A stretch of 64,000 nucleotides of DNA from Escherichia coli (GTDB taxonomy: Bacteria > Pseudomonadota > Gammaproteobacteria > Enterobacterales > Enterobacteriaceae), in the NCBI RefSeq assembly GCF_044324875.1, contig NZ_CP172185.1; one strand, written 5' to 3'. Of this stretch, positions 18,778 to 64,000 are shown piece after piece (within the stretch, counting starts at the first letter, position 1; the number at the start of each line of letters is the position of its first letter). The notes under the pieces are model-generated. The model saw only the letters and a list, made by a program, of their open reading frames with translations. It did not search any database and had not been told where the DNA came from. Made by a program: the position numbers and the translations under genes.

Positions 18778-19143
18778 GTCGACAGGGAGTCAGACAACGA
18801 AGTGAACATCAGGATGATGACACTTCTGAAGGACACACCAGGATGGTGTTTCAGGGAAAGGCTTCTGGATGAAGCGAAGAGGATGACGCAGGACGCGTTA
18901 AAGGACACCTCCAGGATGGAGAATGAGAACCGGTCAGGATGATTCGGTGGGTCAGGAAGGCCAGGGACACTTCAGGATGAAGTATCACATCGGGGTGGTG
19001 TGAGCAGGAAGCAATAGTTCAGGATGAACGATTGGCCGCAAGGCCAGAGGAAAAGTTGTCAAGGATGAGCAGGGAGCAACAAAAGTAGCTGGAATGCTGC
19101 GAAACGAACCGGGAGCACTGTGAATACAGTGCTCCCTTTTTTT
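18778..19143 (+). ncRNA. csrB: CsrB, CsrA-sequestering sRNA
   Basis: Begins GTCGACAGGGAGTCAGACAACGAAG; about 20 CAGGA(U)G / GGA motifs across 366 nt; ends with GC hairpin GGGAGCACTGT-GAAT-ACAGTGCTCCC plus T-run (19110-19143); between syd and yqcC as in K-12. Confidence 0.9.
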
Positions 19144-19188
19144 ATTCCTGCTATTCTTCGCGGCAGTTTTTCTTATTGAGGTTGCTTT

Positions 19189-36990: not shown

Positions 36991-38139
36991 TTACCAGCGT
37001 CCGGATGAACCGCCGCCTCCTGAAGAACCACCACCACCGCGGAAAGAATTTCTCGACGAAGAGCGAGAATGAGCATTACGATTCCCCGTTTTCCTGTTGC
37101 TTTTTTCTCCTGACCCCAGTTTAAGATTGCCAGTAAATTTGGCCACAATGATCAGCAGAACTATGCCAGCAATGGTTATTGGGCCGATAAAATGATCAAT
37201 TAGCCCAATAATTGTTGAGATGAATGCAATATCTTTATTACTGGCGAACACCAGGCACCATCCCACAATAATTATCAGCATCACGACAAACAATGAATTT
37301 CGTCCTGATTCACGAACCTGCGGAGTCTTCTTTTGTTTTTTCACTTTAGTGTTTTTATTTTTGGGGGCCAGCATCATAGGAAATGCGCGGCACATATTAA
37401 AAACTACCGCGAGACGCTGCCAGCAGGTTGTTGCTAACAATAAACTAAAACAAACGACCGATACCCGCCGAATGATGACATCGTCCTGAAAGGAGAAAAA
37501 CCAGACCATAGGGGTAATCATCGATATCATCCATATGCCACGCCCTGGGCGGCTGGCAAATCGCCAGAGGACAACGATGGCAACGATCATCAGCAGTGTC
37601 CAGGCAAGACAAGGCAGCGAACGTTGCGGATTAGCAAACAGATGATTGGCTAAAGCATCCAAAGGGCTAAGGTTCGCTTTGATATGGGTAAACTGTGCGA
37701 TGCTTTCAATTCCGCCCGTTAATCCAGCAAAGAGATTGTTTTTTTCGAATTCTGGCTGCATATGGTAACGAACAATTTGCGCAGCTTGTTCCGGCGGCAA
37801 CATCTGTTCCAGTCCATGTCCAATCTTCATTGACGCCAGCCCTTCCGGCCATACGACGAGAATTAAGATACCTTCGCCATATCGCTTCTCTCCAACGGGT
37901 TTCCAGTGATATACCCCGTATCTCTGCGAGGCTGCAAGTTTAATGTTTTTGCCCCCTGTGGTCGGCGTGACCAACACGGCCACCTGGAAGTGGTTTTGCT
38001 GCACGAGAGTCTGTAATTGTTGAGTTAAAGCAGTTTGTTCTTCTGTCGTTAATGTCCCGGTTAAGTCAGTTACTGAAGGCAATTGTTCAGCGAATACCTG
38101 AAAACCGCATAGCATCAGAAGTAAGAGAAAAATACGCAT
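36991..38139 (-). CDS. TPM-domain membrane protein, divergent paralog B
   Basis: 382-aa ORF: signal peptide, TPM-like N-domain, several hydrophobic segments, Lys-rich linker, Gly/Ser tail ending GRW; 5 bp upstream of paralog C. Confidence 0.7.
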   Translation of the reverse strand: MRIFLLLLMLCGFQVFAEQLPSVTDLTGTLTTEEQTALTQQLQTLVQQNHFQVAVLVTPTTGGKNIKLAASQRYGVYHWKPVGEKRYGEGILILVVWPEGLASMKIGHGLEQMLPPEQAAQIVRYHMQPEFEKNNLFAGLTGGIESIAQFTHIKANLSPLDALANHLFANPQRSLPCLAWTLLMIVAIVVLWRFASRPGRGIWMISMITPMVWFFSFQDDVIIRRVSVVCFSLLLATTCWQRLAVVFNMCRAFPMMLAPKNKNTKVKKQKKTPQVRESGRNSLFVVMLIIIVGWCLVFASNKDIAFISTIIGLIDHFIGPITIAGIVLLIIVAKFTGNLKLGSGEKSNRKTGNRNAHSRSSSRNSFRGGGGSSGGGGSSGRW

Positions 38140-38153
38140 ATCAATTCCTTTTG

Positions 38154-39047
38154 TTACCAGCGCCCGGAAGCGCCACCGCCACCAGATGAACCGCCACCAC
38201 CGCTGAAATTGTCATTGTTGAATGAAGAGGATGACGATGATGAATAGTGGGAGGAAGAATTGCTTCTTGTATGGCGTGATGGCTGGTTGGCATCACGCAT
38301 CGAATCCCGAACCTTTTTGCCGAAGGGGGTAAAAGCGATGGCGACAGCCAGGAACGGTGTGGCGAAGCAGAGTAATGTTGCGAGTACTCCCCAGCTTCCG
38401 CTGAAGCCTGCTATAGGTAAAACAAAGGCCAGTACAATAGCTGCGAAGCAAATTACTCCCAGCGTTTTGATATATCCTCTGGCAGAAATAAACGTCAGTA
38501 CTATCGCCCAGACTAACAAAGCCCACCAACCGCTAAAAGGCAAAGGGTGATCGGTCGGTGTTATCGTTGCTAAATTATTCCCCGTCAGACGACTTTCAAT
38601 ATCGCTGATTCCCTTTTGCAAACCACCAGCCAGGTCCCCTTTTTTAAATGCCGGAATAATACTGTTGCGAATAATTTTCCCGGACTGTGCATCCGTAATA
38701 ATACCTTCCAGTCCGTAACCGATTTCAATACGCACGGTATGATCCTGCCAGGCGACTAACAGTAGAACGCCATCATCGTGGTCTTTATCACCCGGTTTCC
38801 AGCTATCGAATACCCGCGTTGCGTACTGCTCGATGGTTTCATCGCCTGTTGTTTCAACCACTAACACGACCAACTGTGCGTTGTTTTTTTGCGTCAGGGC
38901 TTTAATCTGGTTGGTCAGGGTGTTTACTTCACTGTTTGTCAATGTGCCGGTTAAGTCATTCACATACCTGGGTGATTCAGGTACTGGAATTTGTGTGGCA
39001 AACACAGATGAACAGAAGAAAGCCATAAGGAAGATAAAATTTCGCAT
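38154..39047 (-). CDS. TPM-domain membrane protein, paralog A
   Basis: Close paralog of 36092-36985; ORF runs to 39077, but the start at 39047 (MRNFIFLMAFFCSSVFA signal peptide, GGAAG RBS) avoids overlapping lemA. Confidence 0.7.
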   Translation of the reverse strand: MRNFIFLMAFFCSSVFATQIPVPESPRYVNDLTGTLTNSEVNTLTNQIKALTQKNNAQLVVLVVETTGDETIEQYATRVFDSWKPGDKDHDDGVLLLVAWQDHTVRIEIGYGLEGIITDAQSGKIIRNSIIPAFKKGDLAGGLQKGISDIESRLTGNNLATITPTDHPLPFSGWWALLVWAIVLTFISARGYIKTLGVICFAAIVLAFVLPIAGFSGSWGVLATLLCFATPFLAVAIAFTPFGKKVRDSMRDANQPSRHTRSNSSSHYSSSSSSSFNNDNFSGGGGSSGGGGASGRW

Positions 39048-39060
39048 ATAACTTCCCCGC

Positions 39061-39663
39061 TTAATGCGCATTAGCATTCTGGCTAAAATCTATTATTGGT
39101 GCTTTACTCACAGCTGCGACGTCATCCGGCAAATAATTTTTCTTCGGTGTGTAATCCATGACCTTTGCGGTTAATACAGCGGGGAATTTGCGGATAGTGA
39201 CATTATATTGTTCAATGGCTTTAATATATCTTCCTCGCGCAACGGCAATTCTATTTTCACTTCCTTCGAGCTGTACCATTAAATTTTGATAGAGTTCCTG
39301 AGCTTTTAAATCAGGGTAACGTTCACTAATTATCGTTAACTGACCGAGAGTGCGAGACACCTGCGCCTGGGCTTGTTGCCAGGCTTGTAATTTTTGCGCA
39401 TCTCCCGGAGCTTGCTGAAGATCGCTACTGGCGCGATTAGCCTGGCTACGTGCCAATGTTACGGCTTCCAGTACCTCTTGTTCATGGCTGGAATAACCTT
39501 TAATACTGGCGACAAGATTAGGAATAAGATCGGCGCGACGTTGATATTGATTCAATACCTCAGACCAGGAGGCGTTAACCTGCTCATCATAGGTTTGAAT
39601 ATCGTTATATCCACAGCCTGATAAATTGGCAATAAATATAATTACGATGAATATCCTGAGCAT
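39061..39663 (-). CDS. lemA: LemA-family lipoprotein
   Basis: 200-aa ORF with lipoprotein signal (LSGC lipobox) and LemA-like helical body; first gene of a four-gene minus-strand operon. Confidence 0.75.
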   Translation of the reverse strand: MLRIFIVIIFIANLSGCGYNDIQTYDEQVNASWSEVLNQYQRRADLIPNLVASIKGYSSHEQEVLEAVTLARSQANRASSDLQQAPGDAQKLQAWQQAQAQVSRTLGQLTIISERYPDLKAQELYQNLMVQLEGSENRIAVARGRYIKAIEQYNVTIRKFPAVLTAKVMDYTPKKNYLPDDVAAVSKAPIIDFSQNANAH

Positions 39664-39835
39664 GTCTATGTCCCTTTTAATTAATTCCTTAAAACATAAT
39701 ACGCCGCTTCATTTTATTCTTTATGATCTCATCCACTTTTTGCCTTAAACCTGCCTGTAACAGAATGTTAATAAGACATGATTGTTGTGGCAGGATCTGC
39801 AATAATTAACAATTATCCACTTCACAGAGAATGCT

Positions 39836-40507
39836 ATGCAGTACCCGATTAACGAGATGTTCCAGACCCTGCAAGGTGAGGGTTACTTTACCGGCGTCCC
39901 CGCCATTTTTATTCGTTTACAGGGATGCCCGGTTGGCTGTGCCTGGTGCGACACCAAACACACCTGGGAAAAGCTTGAGGATCGGGAAGTCTCCCTTTTC
40001 AGCATTCTGGCGAAGACCAAAGAGAGTGATAAGTGGGGGGCGGCGAGCAGTGAAGACTTGCTGGCTGTCATTGGTCGCCAGGGATACACCGCGCGGCATG
40101 TGGTGATTACGGGTGGTGAGCCTTGCATTCATGATTTGCTGCCACTGACTGACCTGCTCGAAAAGAACGGTTTTAGCTGCCAGATCGAAACCAGTGGTAC
40201 TCATGAGGTACGCTGCACACCGAATACCTGGGTTACCGTATCGCCAAAGCTGAACATGCGCGGCGGCTATGAAGTGTTGTCACAGGCACTGGAGCGAGCC
40301 AACGAAATCAAGCATCCAGTGGGACGCGTACGTGATATTGAAGCACTGGATGAACTACTGGCAACACTGACCGATGATAAACCGCGAGTCATTGCACTGC
40401 AGCCGATTAGCCAAAAGGATGATGCTACTCGTTTATGTATCGATACGTGCATTGCGCGCAACTGGCGTTTGTCGATGCAAACGCATAAATATTTAAATAT
40501 TGCCTGA
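39836..40507 (+). CDS. queE: 7-carboxy-7-deazaguanine synthase QueE (radical SAM)
   Basis: 223-aa ORF; MQYPINEMFQTLQGEGYFTGVPAIFIRLQGCPVGCAWCDTKHTW with CxxxCxxC-type radical-SAM cluster motif. Confidence 0.9.
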   Translation: MQYPINEMFQTLQGEGYFTGVPAIFIRLQGCPVGCAWCDTKHTWEKLEDREVSLFSILAKTKESDKWGAASSEDLLAVIGRQGYTARHVVITGGEPCIHDLLPLTDLLEKNGFSCQIETSGTHEVRCTPNTWVTVSPKLNMRGGYEVLSQALERANEIKHPVGRVRDIEALDELLATLTDDKPRVIALQPISQKDDATRLCIDTCIARNWRLSMQTHKYLNIA

Positions 40508-40559
40508 TTAAACATTTATAAGCGTTATAAATGGGTGGAACCTGTAAAGACTTCTACTC

Positions 40560-40845
40560 ATTTATATTCTTTGTCGCCTCTGAAAAACCTCCATTTTGCC
40601 CATCCTGAACTAATCATTATCATTCTCTACAAATTTTATGGCGTTAATTTTTCGTTGGAGTGAAAATTATTGCGGTGAAATTTGGTAGATTTTAGTTTGA
40701 ATAGAGTTATTTCAAATATTTATCTTTTTAATCAATGGATTAAATGCTCTTTAACATAATGGATGTGTTGTTTGTGTGATACTGTAAAGTTGGTAGATTG
40801 TGACTGGCTTAAAAAATCATTAATTAATAATAGGTTATGTTTAGA
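40560..40845 (+). promoter_or_regulatory. CRISPR leader (AT-rich)
   Basis: About 285 bp of AT-rich sequence ending ...TAGGTTATGTTTAGA immediately before the first repeat. Confidence 0.7.
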
Positions 40846-41118
40846 GAGTTCCCCGCGCCAGCGGGGATAAACCGCTTCATCTGTCGGGCTAACTGGACAA
40901 AGAAACGAGTTCCCCGCGCCAGCGGGGATAAACCGTCGGTTTGACATCAAAGAAGCCATCAATCAGGGAGTTCCCCGCGCCAGCGGGGATAAACCGGTCT
41001 GGCCATAGGAACAAAGAAATTTGTCTTTGAGTTCCCCACGTCAGCGGGGATAAACCGGACACAGAGCGCCGCTATAGCGCCTATGCCAAGAGTTCCCCGC
41101 GCCAGCGGGGATAAACCA
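40846..41118 (+). CRISPR. type I-E CRISPR array (CRISPR2.1 position), 5 repeats and 4 spacers
   Basis: 29-bp repeats GAGTTCCCCGCGCCAGCGGGGATAAACCG at 40846, 40907, 40968, 41029 (variant CCCCACGTCAG) and 41090 (terminal, ends A); 32-bp spacers at 40875-40906, 40936-40967, 40997-41028, 41058-41089. Confidence 0.95.
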
Positions 41119-41571
41119 CCATATAACCCGTTATCTCTTTCTCAAGTTTTTATATTAGCAGTACTTGTAATAAGCAACATATCCACGTAACACCTCATGT
41201 TCAAAATAGTTCTCCATGCCAGAGAAGTTCACAATTATCGATACAAAAAATTAAATTTAATCAAAGTGTTATTTGTATGATTCTTAAATCGTTAAGAAAT
41301 TTTAATATATTATTTTTTTAATATTAATTAATGCCTGTTAATTTTTTCTTTAGAATAACAGTGTATTTTTTAAGCTTATTATTCATTGATTAAGTAATAA
41401 ATCTGGAAATTTGTCTTTGTTTTGAGGCTAATGAGTGATTTTACATAATCGCCTCTATACGCTGTTGATGAATAGTTCTTATGAATAAAGATATCCAGTT
41501 CATACTTTAAGTGAAAATTGATAAAGTGCGATTCGTATTGTCTTTTATTCTAAAGACATCGAGTGTAGTTA

Positions 41572-41709
41572 ATATTCCTTGTAAAAACAGGGATAAACCG
41601 AACTAGTTAAAGTTTTTATTATGTTCCCTGCATCAGCGGGGATAAACCGGACTTGTTATCATTTTTTAAGTTGTCGAACTTATGTTCCCCGCGTCAGCGG
41701 GGATAACCA
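41572..41709 (+). CRISPR. degenerate CRISPR remnant (CRISPR2.2-3-like)
   Basis: Three decayed repeat-like units ending GGGGATAAACCG (41572-41600, 41621-41649, 41682-41709, the last with a 1-bp deletion); intervening segments of 20 and 32 bp; AT-rich leader-like region upstream. Confidence 0.6.
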
Positions 41710-41755
41710 TTCAGGTATGTTCAGGCCGGGCAGTTTCCCGCCCGGTCTTCCTCAC

Positions 41756-43234
41756 TTACGCATTCGACCAGCTCTGGATCGAATCTTCATTCCCCAGCTC
41801 ACCATGCATCACTTCATACGATTTTTTCAGGATCACATCAGTGTGTTTGGTTAGGTCTTTGAAAATGCCTTTATTCATCGCGTTGTAGCGTTTGGCGTTG
41901 CTCTCAACAGGCATAAAGATATCTTTCACGCGAACCATTTTGTCGACAGCCGTTGCGTAATCCGGGTATAGCCCCAGACCTACCGCCGTATTAATCGCTG
42001 CCCCCAGGCTTGCACAACCATTAATGGCGTTACGGCGTGCCGGAAGGTTGAACACGTCGGCAAAAATCTGCATAAACAGATCGCTGTTCGAACCGCCGCC
42101 AGTAATGATCACATGCTTTGCAAAGTGATTCATTTCATTACACATATTGTCGTAATTGTTCTTCAGCGTCAGCGCCACGCTTTCCAGTATCGAACGATAT
42201 ATCCATGCGTAATCCATGCTGGAATCAAAGCCAATCATAATCCCGCGTTTGTACGGTTCCCACGGATTGGTCAGCCAGTCCAGCACCGTCATCAGACCAT
42301 TACAGCCTGGCGGCACACAAGAAGCTTTTTTGTTGAGTAAATCTTCCGGTGAAAGATCCTGCGCCCTGGCATCCTGAATTAACGACTCGCCTAGCATGTC
42401 GCGCAGCCAGCTCACCGTCCACATGCCTTTGCGAATACCGTAACCTTCATACAGCAAGGTTTGCGGAATAGAAGACATAATCGGCCAGTACGCTACCGGA
42501 TCTTTCGGCAGTACTTTGCCGTTCATCATCAACGCGATGTAAGTGCCAAGAGAAATTACCGCAGTTTCATCATCCAGTAACCCGGCTCCCAGTGCTTCTA
42601 CCGGTTTATCACTGGTGGTACAAACAACCGGCAGCCCAGCCGGGAAATGTGTCGCCAGCGCGGCTTGAGGAGTGATATGCCCAAGAACAGTGCCCGGCAT
42701 TTGCACATCAAACAGCATATGACGGGGGATATTAAACTTCTCCATGACTGCGGCATCTTCACTCCATGCCCAGGTCTTATAATCCACCGGCCACTGACCA
42801 AAATAGTTGGCGATATTGTCTTTAAACTCGCCGGTTAAGCGATGCGTCAGATAACCCGAAAAAGAGGTGACATATGCCACGTCAGGATTCGTATGTTCGT
42901 AAGGGCGTGTAACGCGTGCATCCTGCCAGCTAATCAACGGCGCAGCTGGCGTGCCATCGGCTTTCAATAACGCACGGCAGCAACGGATGGATCCCAGACC
43001 AATACCGACAATATCTTCTTTATTTCCGGCAAACTGACTCATCAAATCGTGACCGGCAAAGCATAATGATGCCCATAAATCGTCGTCAGGATGTTCTGCG
43101 GTATCGGCATCTGGCGTGTGCATCGGCTGCAATAAGCCTTTGCCTTCGCAAACCACATTACCTTCCAGATCGTACATCACCACTTTTGTGCTCTGACTTC
43201 CACCATCAATCCCTATGATGTATTTTTTCGACAT
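41756..43234 (-). CDS. ygcE: FGGY-family carbohydrate kinase YgcE
   Basis: 492-aa ORF beginning MSKKYIIGIDGGSQSTKVVMYD. Confidence 0.85.
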   Translation of the reverse strand: MSKKYIIGIDGGSQSTKVVMYDLEGNVVCEGKGLLQPMHTPDADTAEHPDDDLWASLCFAGHDLMSQFAGNKEDIVGIGLGSIRCCRALLKADGTPAAPLISWQDARVTRPYEHTNPDVAYVTSFSGYLTHRLTGEFKDNIANYFGQWPVDYKTWAWSEDAAVMEKFNIPRHMLFDVQMPGTVLGHITPQAALATHFPAGLPVVCTTSDKPVEALGAGLLDDETAVISLGTYIALMMNGKVLPKDPVAYWPIMSSIPQTLLYEGYGIRKGMWTVSWLRDMLGESLIQDARAQDLSPEDLLNKKASCVPPGCNGLMTVLDWLTNPWEPYKRGIMIGFDSSMDYAWIYRSILESVALTLKNNYDNMCNEMNHFAKHVIITGGGSNSDLFMQIFADVFNLPARRNAINGCASLGAAINTAVGLGLYPDYATAVDKMVRVKDIFMPVESNAKRYNAMNKGIFKDLTKHTDVILKKSYEVMHGELGNEDSIQSWSNA

Positions 43235-50211: not shown

Positions 50212-50325
50212 CGTGCTGCCGGATGATCCTGCCTACGGTTCTGGGCTGGGGACTTGTAAGCCTGATAAGACGCGTCAAGCGTCGTATCAGGCGCTGAATG
50301 TCGGATGTGGCGTGCAGCCTACAAA
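50212..50325. repeat. BIME-like cluster of REP elements between convergent ygcQ and ygcP
   Basis: Canonical REP GCCTGATAAGACGCGTCAAGCGTCGTATCAGGC at 50260-50292, flanked by partial GCCGGATG...CCTAC units. Confidence 0.75.
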
Positions 50326-50357
50326 TCACACAAATTCAACTCGTTACGAGTATCCCG

Positions 50358-50933
50358 TCAAAGCAATTTTTTCGCTAACGTCCAGACCCCGGTATTCGTG
50401 GTGGAAAGCGCCACAACACCCGCGTTAATCGCATTACGCGCATCTTCTTCATCGCACACCAGCCCGCCGGCAATCAGCGGTTGGCGGATTTTCTCCGTCA
50501 CCCAGCCTAGCACTTTAGGCATACAGCCTGGCAGGATCTCAATACAATCCGGATTCGATTGCGCAACTTGCTTATCAATGTTGTGAAACGAAATCGAATC
50601 AACAATAAACAGGCGATGAATACAGAAAAAACCTTCCGCTCTTGCCGCTTTTAGCATCGATGCTTTCGTGCTGATAATGCCGTCCGCCTCGGTCACCAGT
50701 TTCAGAAACTGAATCACCACTTCTTTGTTCGATGCGCCTTCCAGCAAATCAACATGAATAAAGGCATATTTTCCGGCGTTTTTAATCTTTTTAACGATAT
50801 TACTGATGGTGCAGATATTGCCGTACAACACGGAAATAAACTGGCATTCAGAGTCGATTGCCAGTTGCAGGCTGGCATTATCTTTAACGGCAGCAATCAC
50901 CGGATTCTGGCGGAGCAGGTGTAAGAGGGGCAT
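50358..50933 (-). CDS. ygcP: GlpP-like glycerol-3-phosphate-responsive antiterminator family protein YgcP
   Basis: 191-aa ORF; synteny. Confidence 0.75.
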   Translation of the reverse strand: MPLLHLLRQNPVIAAVKDNASLQLAIDSECQFISVLYGNICTISNIVKKIKNAGKYAFIHVDLLEGASNKEVVIQFLKLVTEADGIISTKASMLKAARAEGFFCIHRLFIVDSISFHNIDKQVAQSNPDCIEILPGCMPKVLGWVTEKIRQPLIAGGLVCDEEDARNAINAGVVALSTTNTGVWTLAKKLL

Positions 50934-50949
50934 AAATTATCCTTATTAT

Positions 50950-51210
50950 TTATCCAAAGCGGTAGGTGATGCCGAATCCGGAAGGCGGATAGTGCCACTG
51001 TTGTAGCGTTTTTTCATCGCACAGCAAACGGCAGGTGCCGCACTCCAGACAATTACGATAATCAACGTGCAAATCACCCTCCGGTGTGAGCGAAAAAAGA
51101 CCAGCCGGACAAGCGTTAATCAACTGTTGTGCCGTCTGGCGCTCAACGGAGTCTGCCGGAACAATATGTGGCGCATCAGCAGCGCGCCAGAGATTACGGG
51201 CTACAGACAT
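50950..51210 (-). CDS. ygcO: ferredoxin-like protein YgcO (FixX-like)
   Basis: 86-aa form starting MSVARNLW with Cys cluster CLECGTCRLLC; ORF extends to 51246. Confidence 0.8.
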   Translation of the reverse strand: MSVARNLWRAADAPHIVPADSVERQTAQQLINACPAGLFSLTPEGDLHVDYRNCLECGTCRLLCDEKTLQQWHYPPSGFGITYRFG

Positions 51211-52472
51211 CGAATACTCCTGACAACATCGCCCGCCAGATGCCACAGGCCATGACGACGTAAATGACGCCAGAATAACTGGCGCAGCGGTGGAACAGGT
51301 TTATCACCCTGATCCCATAAATCACGGGAAATATCCTGCATTAACGCAGGCCACGCCCGATACCAGCCAGGGCGTTGCAAAAGCGCCGGAACATGCTGAT
51401 AACGCTGTAAAACATCCCACAGCAGGCTGCGCTCTACGTTGTGATGATAAAGCGGAAACAGATTTTGCGGCTCGCGGTGCTGGCAGGCGCTTATTAGCGT
51501 TTGTGCCGCCGCCTGCGCGCCAGTTAGCGCCATATCCATGCCGCGCACGGAAATTCCGGTATTGACGCAACTGCGCAACGCATCGCCCACCAGCAGTCAG
51601 CCGTTACCGGCGTATTGCATCGGCATACTGTGTAAGCCACCTTCTGGCACCAGATGCGCACCATACTCCAGTGATTCCGTGTTTTTGATAAGCGGGCGCA
51701 CTGCCGGATGCGTTTTAAAGCGAGCCAGCAGCTCGCTTGCCGGAACACGACTTTGCGTAAGGGAAGAGAGCGGGCAAACAATCCCTAACGAGAGCGTTTG
51801 TTGATTAGTATAAAGAAATGCGCCGCCGGGTAAGTCATCACAGATCCCGCCGCTGAACAGCAACGCTGCGCCTTCGTTATTCTCCAGATGAAAACGTTCT
51901 TCAATAGCGGATGTTTCCAGCGACAGCACTTCTTTGATCCCCAACGCCATCGCTTCGCCAGCAGGACGAGTCACTAACCCGTGACGTTCAGCCAGGACGC
52001 TGTTGGCACCTTCTGCCAGCACCACATAACGGGCGCGGAGAATATCGTCACCACAAATGACACCACACACCCTGCCGTTTTCTTCATACAGCGCATCCAC
52101 CGTCGCACCGGGGATGCATTCGACACCTTCTTTTTCGGCTTCGGCAACCAGCCACGGATCGAACCGTGCACGTAATACACTCCAGGATTCACCGCCGGGC
52201 TGTAAGCTGGAAAACGTCGTTGCGCCATCCGGCGTTAGCAGAGAAAGGCTTTCGTGAGTGATGCGTCGTTCAAGAGGCGCGGTCAGATGAAATTGCGGGA
52301 GGAGTTCCGCGAGCGCATGGGTGTATAAACGCCCGCCGGAAAGATTTTTGCTGCCGGGGATTTCAGCGCGTTCCAGTAACAGAACGGACAAACCTGCCCG
52401 CGCGCAGCGTAAAGCACAAGCGGTACCTGCTATACCCGCACCAATAATAATAATGTCGCAGTTGTCTTCCAT
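51201..52472 (-). pseudogene. ygcN: FixC-like FAD-dependent oxidoreductase YgcN interrupted by an in-frame TGA
   Basis: N-part MEDNCDIIIIGAGIAGTACAL... ends at TGA (51597-51599); the same frame continues LLVGDALRS... to 51201; combined length 423 codons. Confidence 0.7.
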
Positions 52473-52549
52473 GTCATGCCCCAGATATCCAGAACACAAC
52501 ACCCTAACATGGCGTTACTTAAGGGAAATTGACCGCCGACACACTCTTA

Positions 52550-52915
52550 TCATTCGCCGCGATAGATACAGCCTGCAGTACAGGTTTCTTTTACCATCAC
52601 CGCACTTAACAGCGGCACAACGGGTTTAACCTGATCCCAAATCCATTTTGCTAAAACTTCGCTGGTTGGGTTTTCCAGACCTGGAATATCATTGAGATAA
52701 TGGTGATCGAGGCGCTCATAAGTTGGCTTAAACGCCGCTTTCAGTTCAGCGAAATCGATAATCCAGCCCGTATGCGGATCGACCTCCCCGGTAATTTCCA
52801 GTCGCACCATAAAGGAATGCCCGTGCAGGCGACCACATTTATGCCCTTCCGGGACGTGTGGTAAGCGGTGAGCGGCTTCGAAGGTGAAATCTTTAAATAA
52901 CGTGGTGGACATCAT
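52550..52915 (-). CDS. queD: 6-carboxy-5,6,7,8-tetrahydropterin synthase QueD
   Basis: 121-aa form [35 protein letters not shown]; ORF extends upstream to 52999. Confidence 0.9.
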
Positions 52916-53230
52916 AATTTCTCTACAGGACGATAAAACCGCCGTAGAGTACCGGAAAGGCTGTTTTTTCGCATTATCTAAAACGACTTTGTTGCGCAAA
53001 ATCGCTGATTTATCTTATTGATGGGCAATATTCATTTGTTTTTCATTGGGTTGGTTAATCTATTTTGTTGTTAAAGACTATTGCTAAAACAGGTTAGTCG
53101 ATTTGGTTATTAGTTATCGCTATCCCGTCTTTAATCCACACCGTTCACCCCGTTAACCTTACCTTCTCTTCTGTTTTATGGGCGCTGACAGGGCGCAGAA
53201 ACAGCTTTGCTTACTGGAACATAACGACGC

Positions 53231-55030
53231 ATGACGACACAGGTCCCACCTTCCGCGTTGCTTCCGTTGAACCCGGAGCAACTGGCACGCCTTCAGGCGG
53301 CCACGACCGATTTAACTCCCACCCAGCTTGCCTGGGTTTCTGGCTATTTCTGGGGCGTGCTCAACCAGCAGCCAGCTGCGCTTGCAGCGACGCCAGCGCC
53401 CGCCGCAGAAATGCCGGATATAACTATTATCTCCGCTTCGCAAACCGGCAATGCGCGCCGGGTTGCTGAAGCATTACGCGATGATTTATTGGCGGCAAAA
53501 CTGAACGTTAAGCTGGTGAACGCGGGCGACTATAAATTCAAACAAATCGCCAGCGAAAAACTGCTTATCGTGGTGACGTCAACGCAAGGGGAAGGGGAAC
53601 CGCCGGAAGAAGCCGTCGCGCTGCATAAGTTCCTGTTCTCCAAAAAAGCGCCAAAGCTGGAAAACACTGCATTTGCCGTGTTTAGCCTCGGCGATAGCTC
53701 TTATGAATTTTTCTGCCAGTCCGGGAAAGATTTTGACAGCAAGCTGGCGGAACTGGGCGGTGAACGCCTGCTCGACCGTGTCGATGCCGACGTTGAATAC
53801 CAGGCTGCTGCCATCGAGTGGCGCGCCCGCGTGGTTGATATTCTGAAGTCCCGTGCGCCTGTCGCGGCACCTTCGCAATCCGTCGCTACTGGCGCGGTAA
53901 ATGAAATCCACACCAGCCCGTACAGCAAAGACGCGCCGCTGGTGGCGAGCCTCTCTGTTAACCAGAAAATTACCGGGCGTAACTCTGAAAAAGACGTTCG
54001 CCATATCGAAATTGACTTAGGTGACTCGGGCCTGCGTTACCAGCCGGGTGACGCGCTGGGCGTCTGGTATCAGAACGATCCGGCACTGGTGAAAGAACTT
54101 GTCGAACTGCTGTGGCTGAAAGGCGATGAAACTGTCACCGTTGACGGCAAAACGCTGACCCTGAGCGAAGCGCTCCAGTGGCACTTTGAACTCACCGTCA
54201 ACACCGCGAATATTGTTGAGAACTACGCCACGCTTACCCGCAGCGAAACGCTGCTGCCGCTGGTGGGCGATAAAGCGAAGTTACAGCATTACGCCGCGAC
54301 CACGCCGATTGTTGACATGGTGCGTTTCTCTCCGGCGCAACTGGATGCCGAAGCGCTGATTAACCTGTTGCGCCCGCTGACCCCGCGCCTGTATTCCATC
54401 GCCTCCTCGCAGGCGGAAGTCGAGAACGAAGTGCACGTTACCGTTGGTGTGGTGCGTTACGACGTGGAAGGCCGCGCCCGTGCCGGTGGTGCCTCCAGCT
54501 TCCTCGCGGATCGTGTGGAAGAAGAGGGTGAAGTCCGCGTCTTTATCGAACATAACGACAACTTCCGCCTGCCCGCTAACCCGGAAACCCCGGTGATCAT
54601 GATTGGCCCTGGCACCGGCATCGCGCCGTTCCGTGCCTTTATGCAGCAGCGTGCTGCCGACGAAGCGCCGGGTAAAAACTGGCTATTCTTTGGCAACCCA
54701 CACTTTACGGAAGATTTCCTCTACCAGGTGGAGTGGCAGCGCTACGTGAAAGAAGGCGTATTGAGCCGCATCGATCTTGCCTGGTCGCGCGACCAAAAAG
54801 AAAAAGTTTATGTACAAGACAAACTGCGCGAACAGGGCGCGGAGCTGTGGCGCTGGATCAATGACGGTGCCCACATTTATGTCTGCGGCGACGCTAATCG
54901 CATGGCGAAAGACGTTGAGCAGGCACTTCTGGAAGTGATTGCCGAATTTGGTGGCATGGACACCGAAGCGGCGGATGAATTTTTAAGTGAGCTGCGCGTA
55001 GAGCGCCGTTATCAGCGAGATGTCTACTAA
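53231..55030 (+). CDS. cysJ: sulfite reductase (NADPH) flavoprotein alpha subunit CysJ
   Basis: 599-aa ORF with flavodoxin and FNR-like domains. Confidence 0.95.
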
Positions 55031-56742
55031 TGAGCGAAAAACATCCAGGGCCTTTAGTGGTCGAAGGAAAACTGACAGACGCCGAGCGCATGAAGCTTGA
55101 AAGCAACTACCTGCGCGGCACCATTGCGGAAGATTTAAACGACGGTCTGACCGGTGGTTTTAAGGGCGACAACTTCCTGCTGATCCGCTTCCACGGCATG
55201 TATCAGCAGGATGACCGCGACATCCGCGCTGAACGTGCTGAACAGAAGCTGGAGCCGCGTCATGCGATGCTGCTGCGCTGTCGTCTGCCGGGTGGGGTGA
55301 TTACCACCAAACAGTGGCAGGCGATCGATAAATTTGCCGGTGAAAACACCATTTATGGCAGCATTCGCCTGACCAACCGCCAGACGTTCCAGTTCCATGG
55401 CATTCTGAAAAAGAACGTCAAACCGGTGCACCAGATGCTGCACTCAGTCGGTCTTGATGCGCTGGCGACCGCCAACGACATGAACCGTAACGTACTCTGT
55501 ACCTCGAACCCTTACGAGTCGCAGCTGCACGCGGAATCCTATGAATGGGCGAAGAAAATATCTGAACATCTGCTGCCGCGTACCCGCGCGTATGCGGAGA
55601 TCTGGCTCGATCAGGAAAAAGTCGCCACCACCGATGAAGAACCGATCCTCGGTCAGACTTATTTGCCGCGTAAATTCAAAACCACGGTAGTGATCCCGCC
55701 GCAGAACGATATCGATCTGCACGCCAACGACATGAACTTCGTGGCGATCGCCGAAAACGGCAAGCTGGTGGGCTTTAACCTGCTGGTGGGCGGTGGGCTT
55801 TCCATCGAGCACGGCAACAAGAAAACCTACGCCCGCACGGCGAGTGAGTTTGGTTATCTGCCGCTGGAGCATACGCTGGCGGTGGCAGAAGCCGTCGTGA
55901 CGACTCAGCGCGACTGGGGTAACCGTACCGATCGTAAAAATGCCAAAACCAAATACACGCTGGAGCGCGTGGGGGTTGAGACGTTTAAAGCGGAAGTGGA
56001 GCGTCGCGCGGGGATCAAATTTGAACCGATCCGTCCGTATGAGTTTACCGGACGCGGCGATCGTATTGGTTGGGTTAAGGGCATTGATGATAACTGGCAC
56101 CTGACGCTGTTTATCGAAAATGGTCGCATCCTTGATTATCCGGGGCGTCCGCTGAAAACTGGCCTGCTGGAGATCGCGAAGATCCACAAAGGTGATTTCC
56201 GCATTACGGCGAACCAGAATCTGATCATCGCCGGTGTGCCGGAAAGCGAGAAAGCGAAGATCGAGAAGATCGCCAAAGAGAGCGGGTTAATGAATGCCGT
56301 CACGCCGCAGCGTGAAAACTCAATGGCCTGCGTGTCATTCCCGACTTGCCCGCTGGCGATGGCCGAAGCCGAGCGTTTCCTGCCGTCTTTTATCGACAAC
56401 ATCGATAATTTAATGGCGAAACATGGTGTCAGCGATGAGCATATCGTGATGCGTGTAACAGGCTGCCCGAACGGTTGTGGTCGCGCGATGCTGGCGGAAG
56501 TGGGCCTGGTGGGTAAAGCGCCGGGTCGCTACAACCTGCATCTTGGCGGCAACCGCATTGGGACACGTATCCCACGGATGTATAAAGAAAACATCACCGA
56601 GCCGGAAATCCTGGCGTCGCTTGATGAACTGATAGGGCGCTGGGCGAAAGAGCGCGAAGCGGGTGAAGGCTTCGGCGACTTTACGGTGCGTGCGGGCATC
56701 ATTCGCCCGGTGCTCGATCCGGCGCGCGATTTGTGGGATTAA
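55030..56742 (+). CDS. cysI: sulfite reductase hemoprotein beta subunit CysI
   Basis: 570-aa ORF; TAATG overlap with cysJ. Confidence 0.95.
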
Positions 56743-56762
56743 CCATCAGCCCGGTCTTGTAG

Positions 56763-56794
56763 GCCTGATAAGACGCGTGAGCGTCGCATCAGGC
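56763..56794. repeat. REP element between cysI and cysH
   Basis: GCCTGATAAGACGCGTGAGCGTCGCATCAGGC palindrome. Confidence 0.8.
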
Positions 56795-56815
56795 AAGGCA
56801 AACAGTGAGGAATCT

Positions 56816-57550
56816 ATGTCCAAACTCGATCTAAACGCCCTGAACGAACTGCCGAAGGTAGATCGCATTCTGGCGCTGGCAGAAACTAACGCCGAACTGG
56901 AAAAACTGGATGCTGAAGGCCGCGTTGCCTGGGCGCTGGATAATCTGCCCGGTGAATATGTACTTTCTTCCAGTTTCGGCATTCAGGCGGCGGTGAGCCT
57001 GCATCTGGTGAATCAGATTCACCCGGATATCCCGGTGATCCTGACCGATACGGGTTATCTGTTCCCGGAAACCTACCGCTTTATTGACGAGTTAACGGAC
57101 AAACTCAAGCTCAACCTGAAAGTGTACCGCGCTACCGAAAGCGCCGCCTGGCAGGAAGCGCGCTACGGCAAACTGTGGGAGCAGGGTGTTGAAGGCATTG
57201 AAAAGTACAATGACATCAACAAAGTCGAACCGATGAACCGGGCGCTGAAAGAACTGAATGCGCAAACGTGGTTTGCTGGCCTGCGCCGCGAACAATCCGG
57301 CAGTCGCGCCAATTTACCGGTGCTGGCAATTCAGCGTGGCGTATTTAAAGTGCTGCCGATTATCGACTGGGATAACCGAACGATATATCAGTATCTGCAA
57401 AAACATGGCCTGAAATATCATCCATTATGGGACGAAGGATATTTATCCGTCGGTGATACCCATACAACCCGTAAATGGGAACCCGGCATGGCGGAAGAAG
57501 AAACGCGTTTCTTTGGCTTAAAAAGGGAATGTGGGCTGCACGAAGGGTAA
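56816..57550 (+). CDS. cysH: phosphoadenosine phosphosulfate (PAPS) reductase CysH
   Basis: 244-aa form [23 protein letters not shown] with GAGGA RBS; ORF-track start at 56663 runs through the REP and is rejected. Confidence 0.95.
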
Positions 57551-57815
57551 AATATCGTACCGCTTAATAAACGTCTCTGTCTGAAAAGATGGGGGCGTTT
57601 TTATTTTGCGAGCAGCATTCCTGATTTTAAACGTGAACGCCGCTGGAAGAATTATCAAGTATAGAATGGCGTTGGGTGCTTGAGGCTGTCTGGCGTTAAG
57701 CATTCGCGAGGTTCCAGATGGACAAAAGCCCCAGGCGATATTTCTATCAACCTGAGGCCAGCGTTCGAACCTAAGCAATTCGAATGTTAGTCTCTTCTTT
57801 GCAGGGAGGCAAGAC

Positions 57816-57968
57816 ATGCTGACAAAATATGCCCTTGTGGCAATCATCGTACTGTGTTGTACAGTACTGGGATTCACGCTGATGGTAGGCGACTCGTTGT
57901 GTGAGTTGAGTATCAGAGAACGTGGTATGGAGTTTAAGGCAGTTCTCGCTTACGAATCGAAGAAGTAG
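57816..57968 (+). CDS. Hok/Gef-family type I toxin (50 aa), possibly the hokX/sokX locus
   Basis: [50 protein letters not shown]: one TM helix, conserved LCE...AYES Hok signature, GGGAGG RBS 6 bp upstream, GC hairpin 57974-57995 after the stop; missing from the ORF track because it is under 60 aa. Confidence 0.7.
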
Positions 57969-58319
57969 CCACCACGCGGGGGTAAAACCCCGCGTATTGA
58001 ATTGTGATGGTTTGGTCTCCTGCACCCTTTTTTAATTTATATTGTTTATGTGAATATTATGCCTATGTTTATTATTCATATATATTACGGATGAAAATTA
58101 TTTGATTATTCATAATGTGCAAAATGGCATCTGAATCGATCGCAGTTTGGCATTCGAATCGATCATGATTTGGCATCCATCTCCGATCACAGTTTGGCAT
58201 CACAATCGATCACGATTTGGCATGCTTCCGATCATTGATTGGCATCCTGCCAGTCACTCCGGGAATTAACTCTTTTCACCACAGTCTCCATTGCCGTGTT
58301 TAAACCAGTGGAGACGTCA

Positions 58320-59885
58320 ATGTCCAGAAAGAGAAAATCCAGGAGCACTATGGAAACCTGTTTTAAGATCCTTCAGCTCAAGTTCGACAAGAAGCTGACT
58401 AACCGTTGTATCGGACTGACGTTACACATCAGCGCCTCAACCGTTTTTGAGGTTCTTGCCCGCTTCAAAGCCTCTTCTCTGTCATGGCCATTACCTGCTG
58501 ATATATCCCATGACACGCTGGAGAAACTCATTTTTCCGCCCAAAGACACCTTTGCATCAGAGCTTGTAATGCCTGACATGTTGTACTTCGATACGGAAAT
58601 GAGAAAACCAGGTGTGACGCGGCAACTGTTGTGGATGGAATACAAGGCACAGGCGGGTAACAAAGCGATGGGATACTCGCACTTCTGCCGTTGCTACCGG
58701 GAGTGGAAAAAAACGCGACGTCTCTCCATGCGCCAGGAGCATCGTGCCGGCGAAAAGCTTTTTATCGACTTCTGTGGTCCTACGGTTCCTGTTATTAATC
58801 CGGACACCGGTGAGATACGCCGCGTGGCAATCTTCGTGGCCGTAATGGGGGCGTCCAACTATACCTACGTTGAAGCGTGCGAAGGTCAGGACATGATGTC
58901 ATGGTTAAATGCCCACAGCCGTTGCCTGACCTTCCTGGGCGGCGTACCGAAGCTGCTCATCCCCGATAACCTCAGAAGCGCAGTGAAAAAGGCCGATCGA
59001 TATGAGCCTGTCATCAACGACAGTTATCAGGCACTGGCTGAGCACTATGGCACGGTTATCATCCCGGCCCGACCACGCAAACCTAAAGATAAACCAAAAG
59101 CAGAAAACGGCGTCCTCATCGTTGAACGATGGCTTCTTGCCCGCATCCGTAATGAAACCTTCCACACGCTCAGGGCGCTGAATGCGCGCCTTAGGGAGTT
59201 ACTGACAGACATGAATAACCGGCCAATGAAGGGGTACGGCAATCAAACCCGTGCAGAACGCTTCCGCATACTGGATGCGCCAGCACTCTCTCCGCTGCCT
59301 CTGGCACCTTATGAATACACGGAATACAAAGCTGTGAAGGTTGGCCCTGACTACCACGTTGAATATGCCCGTCACTGGTACTCCGTTCCACACGAACTGG
59401 TCGGTCAGCGTCTGTCACTGAAGGCGGGGCAGTCGGTGGTACAGCTCTGGCACAAGGGGCAGTGTGTGGCGCAACATCCGCGCAGCACACATGAATATAA
59501 ACACACAACCAATCCGCTTCACATGCCAGAGCGCCACCGGCAGCACGGGACATGGACACCGGAACGCCTGATCGAGCAGGGAAAACGTACGGGCCCGTCC
59601 ACAGGCCGGGTGGTTGAATCCATGCTGAAGGCAAAACCCCATCCGGAACTGGCTTATCGTGCAGTTCTGGGGCTGCTGGCACTTCAGAAAAAATACGGCC
59701 CGGAACGGCTGGAAAAGGCCTGTTACGTTGCCCTGCACTATAACGCCCCTGACAGACGCTTTATCGACAATCTGCTGCGTCACCATCGGGAGAACCTGGA
59801 GCTTCCATTATCCCGCCAGGGCGAACAACATCCGGCATATGCTTCAGAGCATGAAAACCTGCGTGGTCCGGGCTACTACCACTGA
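58320..59885 (+). CDS. istA: IS21-family transposase IstA
   Basis: N-terminal HTH and DDE integrase core; start at MSRKRKSRS (58320) with GGAG RBS preferred over the ORF-track start 58239. Confidence 0.8.
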   Translation: MSRKRKSRSTMETCFKILQLKFDKKLTNRCIGLTLHISASTVFEVLARFKASSLSWPLPADISHDTLEKLIFPPKDTFASELVMPDMLYFDTEMRKPGVTRQLLWMEYKAQAGNKAMGYSHFCRCYREWKKTRRLSMRQEHRAGEKLFIDFCGPTVPVINPDTGEIRRVAIFVAVMGASNYTYVEACEGQDMMSWLNAHSRCLTFLGGVPKLLIPDNLRSAVKKADRYEPVINDSYQALAEHYGTVIIPARPRKPKDKPKAENGVLIVERWLLARIRNETFHTLRALNARLRELLTDMNNRPMKGYGNQTRAERFRILDAPALSPLPLAPYEYTEYKAVKVGPDYHVEYARHWYSVPHELVGQRLSLKAGQSVVQLWHKGQCVAQHPRSTHEYKHTTNPLHMPERHRQHGTWTPERLIEQGKRTGPSTGRVVESMLKAKPHPELAYRAVLGLLALQKKYGPERLEKACYVALHYNAPDRRFIDNLLRHHRENLELPLSRQGEQHPAYASEHENLRGPGYYH

Positions 59886-59901
59886 CAGAAGGAACAACAG
59901 T

Positions 59902-60657
59902 ATGAGTGATAACCTGTTAAACAAACTGACCCAACTGAAACTCCCGGCGATGGCCGGGAGCCTGATACGGCAGCGGGAAACGCCTCAGACCTACGACGAA
60001 CTGTCGTTCGAGGAAAGGCTGACGCTGCTGGTTGATGACGAGCTTCTGAGCAGGGAAAACAGCCGTGTGGCACGGTTGAGAAAAAATGCCGGCCTGAAAT
60101 ACCAGGCAACACCGGAAGGGCTGCGCTATCCGGCCTCAAGAGGTCTGCGGGCTGAACAGATGAGAGAACTGCTGAACGGCCACTACATAACCCACAGGAA
60201 AAACCTGCTGATAACCGGTCCGACAGGATGTGGCAAGAGCTGGATAGCCAATGCGCTGGGCGAACAGGCATGTCGACAGAAACACAGCGTCCGGTACTGT
60301 AGAACCGGGCGATTACTGGAACAACTGGCTCAGGGACGTGTTGATGGCAGCTGGCTGAAATATCTGAAACAGTTGCAAAAAATACAGGTTCTAATCCTGG
60401 ACGATCTGGGGCTGGAACAGTTAAGTAACGCCCAGTGTAATGACCTTCTGGAGCTCATAGAGGATCGTTACGGACAAAGCAGCACGATAGTGGTAAGCCA
60501 GTTCCCGGTAGATAAATGGCATGGTCTGATGGAGAACCCAACAACAGCAGATGCCATCCTGGACAGACTGGTACATAACTCACACCGAGTGGTCCTTCAG
60601 GGAGAGTCACTGAGGAAAAATCCCCCGGTAGTGGAAAGCAGCGAAAAAACGCGTTAA
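59902..60657 (+). CDS. istB: IS21-family ATP-binding helper IstB
   Basis: 251-aa form MSDNLLNKL... with Walker A GPTGCGKSW and Walker B LILDDLG; ORF-track start 59659 overlaps istA. Confidence 0.85.
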   Translation: MSDNLLNKLTQLKLPAMAGSLIRQRETPQTYDELSFEERLTLLVDDELLSRENSRVARLRKNAGLKYQATPEGLRYPASRGLRAEQMRELLNGHYITHRKNLLITGPTGCGKSWIANALGEQACRQKHSVRYCRTGRLLEQLAQGRVDGSWLKYLKQLQKIQVLILDDLGLEQLSNAQCNDLLELIEDRYGQSSTIVVSQFPVDKWHGLMENPTTADAILDRLVHNSHRVVLQGESLRKNPPVVESSEKTR

Positions 60658-60808
60658 AAAGCGGTAGAAAAAGTTAAGTTCCCGGTTGATCGAATGGATG
60701 CGAATCGCTGATCGGACTTCGATGCCAATCCGTGATCGAATAGAGCGGAATACGCACATAATGTAAATATTTTATTGAACGATATATATCACAGATAATT
60801 TTTAATAT

Positions 60809-63508: not shown

Positions 63509-63605
63509 GATGCCTGCGACAGGGCTCTCTGAATAGTTGATACACCGAAAAGGATGGAATGATGGACAACCGACCTGGGATGGTCTTTTTTACGAGAGGA
63601 TGCGT

Positions 63606-64000
63606 ATGAACTCGTTTTCACTTCTGACAACCCCGTGGTTGCCCGTTCGTTATAAAGACGGAACGACAGGCAAACTGGCGCCTGTCGATCTGGCGGATGA
63701 AAATGTTGTCGATATTGCTGCGCCACGGGCAGATCTCCAGGGAGCGGCATGGCAGTTTTTGCTGGGGCTACTACAAACCAGCTTTGCGCCAAAAGATCAT
63801 CGTCGTTGGGATGATATCTGGGAAGACGGACTGGAATCTGAAAAGCTACGGGAAGCATTGCTGTCCTTAGAACACGCTTTCCAGTTTGGGCCAGATTCCC
63901 CTTCATTTATGCAGGATTTCGAGGCGCTCACAGGAGATAAAGTTCAGGTCGCTTCGCTACTGCCTGAGATTCCCGGCGCTCAAACAACGAAGTTTAATAA
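63606..64000 (+). CDS. casA: Cse1/CasA (Cascade large subunit), N-terminal fragment truncated by the window edge
   Basis: ATG at 63606 after a GAGAGGA RBS; open frame to the window end (MNSFSLLTTPWLPVRYKDG...); W-x-PVR N-terminal motif resembles Cse1; directly downstream of cas3. Confidence 0.65.
   Translation, partial: MNSFSLLTTPWLPVRYKDGTTGKLAPVDLADENVVDIAAPRADLQGAAWQFLLGLLQTSFAPKDHRRWDDIWEDGLESEKLREALLSLEHAFQFGPDSPSFMQDFEALTGDKVQVASLLPEIPGAQTTKFN

Follow-up and report, generated by a model that had tools for sequence, protein, structure and literature searches.

Do the type I-E CRISPR-Cas systems of wild E. coli act in nature? A short CRISPR array in the 64-kb stretch of E. coli DNA analyzed here (the window, to which coordinates refer unless a phage is named) provides a clean, small case for this question. 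The original prediction had described five repeats and four 32-bp spacers of type I-E behind an AT-rich leader, about 20 kb from cas3, and had proposed that their content may tell whether the system has been active. The array is real and was correctly described. It is an ordinary E. coli CRISPR2.3 array, of a kind already known, and identical copies of it are already annotated as CRISPR in RefSeq genomes. It has little importance beyond strain typing, and spacers against phage P1, the preference of the non-K-12 variant for an ATG protospacer-adjacent motif (PAM), and the recombination of CRISPR loci have all been published. What we add, within this published knowledge, is the P1 origin and the ATG PAM of two spacers, a second mini-array called CRISPR2.2, a series of related arrays in other strains, and a probable recombination tract that includes the array. 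Together, these elements allow us to ask how the spacers were gained and whether they say anything about the cas genes that now accompany them.

Structure of the array

The array extends from 40846 to 41118 and is made of five 29-bp repeats, all on the + strand, separated by four 32-bp spacers. The repeats start at 40846, 40907, 40968, 41029, and 41090, with a period of exactly 61 bp (61, 61, 61, 61). Their consensus is GAGTTCCCCGCGCCAGCGGGGATAAACCG, from which the successive copies differ by 0, 0, 0, 2, and 1 mismatches, and shuffled versions of the window yielded no repeat match at all (0/100). Repeat 1 (40846-40874), which is of the A-type (GAGTT...), repeat 2 (40907-40935), and repeat 3 (40968-40996) are canonical. 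Repeat 4 (41029-41057; CCCCACGTCAG) is an old variant with two substitutions, G10A and C13T, and repeat 5 (41090-41118) is a terminal variant with a single one, G29A, and thus ends in ...AACCA. The two substitutions of the fourth repeat and the terminal character of the last one were both anticipated by the original prediction, and the spacers that it listed are exactly the four distinct 32-mers found in the sequence. These are S1 (40875-40906; CTTCATCTGTCGGGCTAACTGGACAAAGAAAC), which is the newest, S2 (40936-40967; TCGGTTTGACATCAAAGAAGCCATCAATCAGG), S3 (40997-41028; GTCTGGCCATAGGAACAAAGAAATTTGTCTTT), and S4 (41058-41089; GACACAGAGCGCCGCTATAGCGCCTATGCCAA), which anchors the trailer end. All are on the + strand. 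The terminal repeat is identical in K-12 and in strain 042, and the variant repeat 4 is also found upstream of S4 in strains 042, C4, Ecol_316, and N3. With its 29-bp repeat, its unique 32-bp spacers, its palindromic repeat core, and two spacers that match foreign DNA at an AWG PAM, this is a type I-E array. A search of Rfam returned no match to a CRISPR-repeat family, only sub-threshold chance matches to Chlorobi-1.

Each repeat of the array has a predicted hairpin, though not an equally stable one. Repeat 1 is predicted to form a hairpin with a 7-bp stem and a 4-nt loop (-15.1 kcal/mol, z = -3.6). In repeat 4, the substitution G10A loses one pair of the stem, and the predicted folding energy goes from -15.1 to -9.7 kcal/mol. 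This weaker hairpin could result in a lower maturation of the S3 and S4 crRNAs, a consequence that we infer from the fold.

Leader and locus

The array occupies the E. coli CRISPR-II locus, between queE (ygcF; 39836-40507, + strand) and ygcE (41756-43234, - strand). It is preceded by leader 2.3 (40508-40845, + strand), an intergenic sequence that begins right after the stop codon of queE. Its composition bears out the description of an AT-rich leader, with 29% G+C versus 50.5% in the whole window. The feature had been delimited as 40560-41118. Its end is correct, but its start is an arbitrary point inside the leader, since the intergenic region begins at 40508. This leader has 97% identity to leader 2.3 of K-12, with no differences in approximately the last 60 bp before repeat 1. 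By homology, it would carry the promoter of the pre-crRNA together with the signals for IHF and for Cas1-Cas2 integration. An IHF site at -9 to -35 and a CRISPR-2 transcription start ~95 nt 5' of the first repeat have been described (PMC10011333). When we scanned the leader for consensus promoters, we found no strong promoter and nothing above the background of shuffled sequences.

The published layout of the CRISPR-II locus includes CRISPR2.3 with its own leader 2.3 and, 0.5 kb away, CRISPR2.2 (PMC3903273, PMC3737337). The CRISPR-II locus of K-12 resembles the one studied here in its position, in its 29-bp repeats and 32-bp spacers, in its terminal repeat, in its leader (97% identity), and in its CRISPR2.2 (99% identity). 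It differs from it in spacer content, with six spacers in K-12 and four here, and in the type of repeat, since the leader-proximal repeat of K-12 is T-type (GTGTT...) whereas the repeats here are A-type. The terms CRISPR2.3 and CRISPR2.2 belong to the nomenclature of Diez-Villasenor, Almendros, and Mojica; the corresponding term is CRISPR2 in that of Touchon and CRISPR II in the work on K-12.

Two spacers from phage P1

The origin of the two leader-proximal spacers is clear. S1 matches phage P1 (NC_005856) at 55651-55682 and S2 matches it at 56109-56140, both over their full length (32/32) and both in gene 22, which encodes the tail sheath. The two protospacers are on the same strand, 458 bp apart, and each has ATG immediately 5' of it. 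The same two sequences are present at 100% identity in P7, RCS47, SJ46, and other P1-like phages, and they match some 700 P1-like plasmids (724 plasmid records). Of the complete genomes, ~13% have plasmid matches to these spacers. This choice of target is not unusual, since P1, RCS47, and SJ46 are the known phages that E. coli spacers target most (PMC10910852). The original prediction held that spacers shared universally and matching only chromosomal sites would argue against recent activity. Instead, we found S1 and S2 to be both rare and derived from P1: the segment from repeat 1 to repeat 3 that contains them occurs in 8 records, corresponding to 4 strains, among 5,426 complete E. coli genomes.

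An AAG PAM had been expected, but both identifiable protospacers have ATG. Two such motifs would occur by chance about once in 4,096 times (1/64 squared). Whereas the Cas1-Cas2 proteins of K-12 select CTT (AAG) only, those of the O157 type select CWT, and the most frequent PAM among the natural spacers of cas-EO arrays is CAT (ATG) (Diez-Villasenor et al.). Hence, the PAM of both protospacers agrees with the cas variant found in this window (see below).

Sources sought for S3 and S4

The two older spacers gave a different picture. Neither S3 nor S4 has a phage or plasmid match at E-values of up to 10. When mismatches were allowed at the five positions that type I-E systems ignore, no match to either was found in IMG/VR, in metagenome contigs, or in 100,044 species genomes. 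Among the 5,426 complete E. coli genomes, both are restricted to CRISPR arrays, where S3 occurs (with S4) in 20 records and S4 in 47. As far as the follow-up proposed with the original prediction is concerned, the spacer searches thus lead to P1 gene 22 and plasmids for S1 and S2, and to CRISPR arrays only for S3 and S4.

We considered and rejected two candidate sources of S3. The first was a diverged copy of the P1 sheath gene, suggested by the 17 of 23 nucleotides that S1 and S3 share. In the reading frame of gene 22, S3 would encode FFVPMAR, to be compared with FFVQLAR in P1. Yet, FFVPMAR is absent from 120 homologs of gp22, and S3 has no match to MNAISR, a strongly conserved peptide directly upstream. 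Furthermore, the match of S3 to P1 itself (20/32) is at chance level, and there are six such sites. The other candidate was the DNA that separates CRISPR2.3 from CRISPR2.2, where the 14 nucleotides at 41406-41419 are identical to those at 41016-41029. This inter-array DNA is ancestral, and K-12 has a mismatch within the stretch in question; the full S3 sequence does not occur outside arrays in any of the 5,426 complete E. coli genomes. We treated this match as due to chance.

cas3 and the variant of the system

The longest cas3 ORF lies at 60809-63508 (+ strand) and encodes 899 aa. The gene probably starts in fact with the GTG at 60851, because cas3 orthologs begin 3 to 5 residues ahead of the WGK motif, which corresponds to this codon. 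From the end of the array to the start of the ORF at 60809 there are 19.7 kb, including a 2.6-kb IS element, in good accordance with the distance of about 20 kb given originally. The 5' end of casA (cse1) follows at 63606-64000 (+ strand), with coordinates taken from the 100%-identical locus of strain 7/2. The window thus holds cas3 and the 5' end of casA, and the genes from casB to cas2, like the CRISPR2.1 array, lie beyond its end. The promoter of cas3 could be disturbed by an IS21-family element that lies directly in front of the gene.

This Cas3 has just 29% identity to that of K-12. A hok/sok module adjoins the gene, with sok at 57674-57831, and such modules were reported to be missing only from strains that have cas-E2 genes of the K-12 type (Almendros et al.). 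The divergent Cas3 and the presence of hok/sok therefore assign the system to the majority cas-E1 variant (cas-EO, O157-like, non-K-12), an assignment based on cas3 and its context only. With the O157:H7-like systems of this variant, the locus shares the divergent Cas3, hok/sok beside cas3, the A-type repeats, and the ATG (CAT) PAMs.

The cas3 gene of the window appears to be intact in its sequence. Strain 7/2 has the same protein (100% identity), annotated there as an intact Cas3, and over cas3 and the 5' part of casA the window shows 100% identity to many genomes whose Cas3 is intact according to PGAP. A different allele, of the type of strain 042 and with 94% identity to the one in the window, is carried by the genomes that have the identical array, and the IS element upstream of cas3 also sets the window apart from them. 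In one of them, ECA64, cas3 is interrupted by an IS66-family element. Relatives with related arrays have complete cas operons. We also considered whether cas3 had become a pseudogene in the lineage where S1 and S2 were gained, since PGAP labels it as frameshifted in 042, Ecol_316, C4, O17_K12a, and CB6837, and we rejected this possibility. The indel behind these labels concerns a run of three or four T (T3/T4) at nucleotides 18-21 of the longest ORF, upstream of the GTG at which the orthologs start, and from this conserved GTG every cas3 allele that we compared is open for 885 codons. The pseudogene call is thus probably an annotation artifact, and the lineage in question probably had an intact interference gene when it gained S1 and S2.

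Related arrays and the order of spacer gain

We compared arrays that have the same leader and the same trailer. Strain 042 has S3-S4; Ecol_316 and eight other genomes have S2-S3-S4; ECA64, CB6837, and O17_K12a have S1-S2-S3-S4, like the window. KK19-02 has S1-S2-S4, having lost S3 and a repeat internally, and C4 and two duck isolates have three other spacers in front of the older pair (X-Y-Z-S3-S4). This comparison with related strains, which had been proposed at the outset, shows that the S3-S4 core is shared and that the spacers at the leader end vary. Moreover, S4 and the variant repeat that precedes it form the trailer unit of otherwise T-type arrays in strains 4621, N3, and VCSW7, and S4 must therefore be old. 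We regard S3 and S4, together with the variant repeat 4 and the terminal one, as the older, inherited units. In the simplest reading of these sequences, lineage-specific additions were made at the leader end of an S3-S4 core, and one lineage would have gained S2 and then S1, an order that comes from the arrays themselves rather than from a strain phylogeny.

The proximity of the two P1 protospacers may indicate how the second one was gained. In type I-E systems, priming draws new spacers from the vicinity of the priming site, on the same strand (PMC10011333). By our own estimate, which assumes uniform sampling of the 94.8-kb P1 genome, the coincidence of position and strand between S1 and S2 has a probability of ~0.005. 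S1 was thus probably acquired by primed adaptation, although two spacers are a very small sample. The pattern resembles the primed adaptation of type I-E systems described by Datsenko, Swarts, and Fineran (see PMC10011333), in which successive spacers are taken from the same strand of one target, close to each other and next to a consensus PAM. It differs from priming in K-12 in that there are just two events here, deduced from natural isolates, and in that the PAM is ATG and not the typical AAG.

A probable recombination tract in a mosaic region

The genomes with the identical array are not close relatives of the window over its length. ECA64, CB6837, and O17_K12a share the 1,253-bp intergenic locus with the window at 100% identity, and this identity extends over 3.1 kb (38780-41883), where there are no SNPs between the window and these three 042-like genomes. 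On both sides of this block the divergence is ~3%, and over most of the 40 kb compared the three genomes differ from the window by 1 to 3%. Conversely, the genomes that are closest to the window at 42-50 kb (98.9% at best) differ from it by 2 to 3.5% at the CRISPR-II locus. The cas3 region shows yet a third pattern, with 100% identity to many genomes, strain 7/2 among them, and 94% identity to the 042-type allele. An identical block with diverged flanks and a third pattern at cas3 imply that the window has a mosaic structure, in which homologous recombination most likely brought the array into this background or carried it out. Alternatively, the diverged flanks could be the imported DNA, and the same data fit either direction. 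Homologous recombination of E. coli CRISPR loci has been published before.

This has consequences for what the array can tell about the activity of the system. On the one hand, S1 and S2 are rare and derived from P1, so that the original question of whether the system has been active can be answered with a partial yes. On the other hand, recombination has probably moved the tract that contains the array, and its spacers are therefore no proof that the cas genes of this strain were ever active.

A remote memory of P1-like elements

The explanation that we favor, to which we give a probability of about 85%, is that this CRISPR2.3 array is a remote second memory bank, with P1 spacers that were probably gained stepwise and then transferred by recombination. 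It would serve the type I-E system of the chromosome, with a cas3-cas2 operon that starts ~20 kb away. How it would work can be proposed from the system of K-12 (PMC10011333). A weak, H-NS-sensitive promoter in the leader would transcribe the + strand of the array, and Cas6e would cleave the transcript on the 3' side of every repeat hairpin, at its base, to release 61-nt crRNAs. Cascade loaded with the S1 or S2 crRNA may then find P1-like DNA at the sites flanked by ATG (an AWG PAM) and recruit Cas3, leading to the degradation of the target. Cas1-Cas2 and IHF would insert new spacers where the leader meets repeat 1. As to the history of the array, an ancestor with S3-S4, like strain 042, would have met P1-like elements and taken up S2 first and S1 later, in the case of S1 probably through primed adaptation. 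The complete array would then have entered the background of this strain inside the 3.1-kb tract of homologous recombination.

A stronger claim would be that the array and its relatives document, in nature and step by step, how a wild cas-E1 system acquired spacers by priming against P1-like plasmid prophages, and that this memory was then transferred to an unrelated lineage in a 3-kb tract. We put it forward very tentatively, with more doubt than conviction. If true, memories of immunity would spread from one E. coli lineage to another without depending on the transfer of cas genes. S1 and S2 are, in any case, a ready natural pair of targets for tests of interference and priming in a cas-E1 strain.

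Alternative explanations

The array could also be a silent fossil, which records past encounters, is neither expressed nor used in this strain, and serves as nothing else than a typing marker. We hold this to be a serious contender, a little short of an even bet. The system of K-12 is repressed by H-NS (PMC10011333), and activity in natural isolates is undemonstrated in the literature (PMC10910852). The IS element directly upstream of cas3, the split cas3 of ECA64 in spite of its identical array, the weakened hairpin of repeat 4, and the lack of a strong promoter in our scan of the leader would all fit such a state. However, the ~60 bp of leader beside repeat 1 are the same as in leader 2.3 of K-12, and in BL21-AI the leader-proximal 40-60 bp of that leader support the acquisition of spacers. 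Furthermore, repeats 1 to 3 are perfect, cas3 is open and identical to alleles annotated as intact, and S1 and S2 have a PAM that is proficient for interference. A role outside immunity, e.g., self-targeting or gene regulation, is hardly credible: the best match of any of the spacers elsewhere in the 64-kb window (20/32) is at chance level, and S3 and S4 match nothing but CRISPR arrays among the 5,426 genomes.

Other alternatives concern the way in which the spacers were gained. S1 and S2 could have been taken up by naive (Cas3-independent) adaptation, their proximity being the result of a hotspot in P1 or of selection rather than of priming. There are just two spacers from which to judge. In addition, the CRISPR2.1 arrays of relatives contain further spacers matching P1, and these are scattered (P1 positions 63241, 70170, and 87136), so that P1 must have been sampled repeatedly and independently. 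Nevertheless, we find this explanation rather doubtful, since S1 and S2 come from the same strand, 458 bp apart, and both have the consensus PAM, whereas naive adaptation is less faithful to the PAM and has no strand bias (PMC10011333). It is less likely still that the shorter arrays, S2-S3-S4 and S3-S4, arose from a longer one by deletion instead of being intermediates of gain. Losses from repeat to repeat are known at this locus, as in KK19-02, but in C4 the S3-S4 core is preceded by three other spacers, and addition at the leader end has therefore occurred at least once besides that of S1 and S2. Hence, we retain successive additions at the leader end, with probable priming by S2, as the preferred account of the P1 spacers.

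The CRISPR2.2 mini-array

The original prediction made no mention of the CRISPR2.2 mini-array, 502 bp downstream of repeat 5. It is separated from the main array by the AT-rich inter-array sequence of the CRISPR-II locus (41119-41571). The 502 bp at 41119-41620 have 26.5% G+C and 99% identity to K-12 and 042. CRISPR2.2 itself (41572-41710, + strand) comprises degenerate repeats at 41572-41600, 41621-41649, and 41682-41710 and one 32-bp spacer at 41650-41681, and its region is also 99% identical in the two strains. The conservation of the inter-array stretch, of CRISPR2.2, and of the terminal ...CCA repeat in K-12 and 042 indicates that this is a species-wide fossil. The unit at 41572-41600 is the most degenerate of the three, and all of them (3/3) keep the predicted 7-bp hairpin, the first one by means of compensatory changes.

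A mosaic locus with a probably recombined CRISPR-II region

The window carries Rfam gathering-level matches to GcvB (353-558), CsrB (18787-19146) and the sok antitoxin RNA (57674-57831), and its genes follow the order gudPXD, barA, relA, eno, queE, the ygc genes and cysJIH. It therefore corresponds to the E. coli chromosome around the 2.88-2.94 Mb region of K-12. Within it, a 3.1-kb block (38780-41883) that holds the 3' part of lemA, queE and CRISPR-II, the locus between queE and ygcE, shows 0 differences from O17_K12a, ECA64 and CB6837. It is bounded on either side by flanks with ~3% divergence (37435-38779 and 41884-42917). For the 42-50 kb region the best match reaches 98.9% identity, and none is higher among the 5,426 complete E. 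coli genomes of our collection. Judged from these alignments, an identical block, diverged flanks and this 98.9% ceiling are together the signature of a recombination tract in a lineage that is unrepresented in the collection. The TPM-domain and LemA gene cluster upstream of queE (36991-39663) is itself unusually diverged across strains, at ~3% relative to the 042-like genomes (O17_K12a, ECA64 and CB6837).

A second discontinuity lies next to cas3. An ISSso4-like element of the IS21 family (58119-60756; 2,638 bp, istA/istB, 8-bp target duplication) is located between hok/sok and cas3, in the orientation of the latter. To its right, the segment with cas3 and the 5' end of casA (60757-64000) matches strain 7/2 and many other genomes at 100% identity, whereas to its left (50275-58118) identity to strain 7/2 is only ~97.8%. 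The element is therefore at a mosaic boundary.

Integrity and expression of cas3

The insertion may have consequences for the expression of cas3. The distance from the end of the element to the cas3 ATG is 52 bp, and to the GTG that is likely the true start 94 bp. The element is lacking upstream of cas3 in strains 7/2, 042 and O17_K12a. It could either separate cas3 from its own promoter or drive the gene by read-through. As for the reading frame, cas3 is annotated as a "frameshifted" pseudogene in 042, Ecol_316, C4, O17_K12a and CB6837. This annotation arises from a run of three or four T (T3/T4) that spans nt 18-21 in the longest ORF (window region 60809-60853). The orthologues use a later start, a GTG with AAGGA before it; beginning there, 885 codons are open in every allele compared. 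These pseudogene calls are probably annotation artefacts. Three genomes have an S1-S4 array identical to that of the window. In one of them, ECA64, an IS66-family (ISEc23-like) element splits cas3 (locus L008, 37658-41253), so interference has certainly been lost there, yet the array is still kept.

Arrays of relatives and inter-array DNA

Besides S1 and S2, which match gene 22 of phage P1, further P1-matching spacers occur in the cas-adjacent CRISPR2.1 arrays of 042 (L010, 5160-5554), Ecol_316 (L011, 5002-5701) and C4 (L012, 9946-10458). Their matches lie at P1 positions 63241 (32/32), 70170 (29/30) and 87136 (25/28). The CRISPR2.1 array has 6 spacers in 042 and 11 in Ecol_316, with array ends common to both.

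In the window, the 3' end of S3 and the first base of repeat 4 (41016-41029) share a 14-nt exact match, GAAATTTGTCTTTG, with the inter-array region (41406-41419), a site with one mismatch in K-12; this match is probably due to chance. Downstream lies CRISPR2.2, a fossil mini-array (41572-41710) that was absent from the original prediction, made up of three repeats, all degenerate, and a single spacer of 32 bp (GACTTGTTATCATTTTTTAAGTTGTCGAACTT). Its most degenerate repeat (41572-41600) retains a 7-bp hairpin because of two compensatory C-G to U-A changes. K-12 and 042 are 99% identical to the window across this region.
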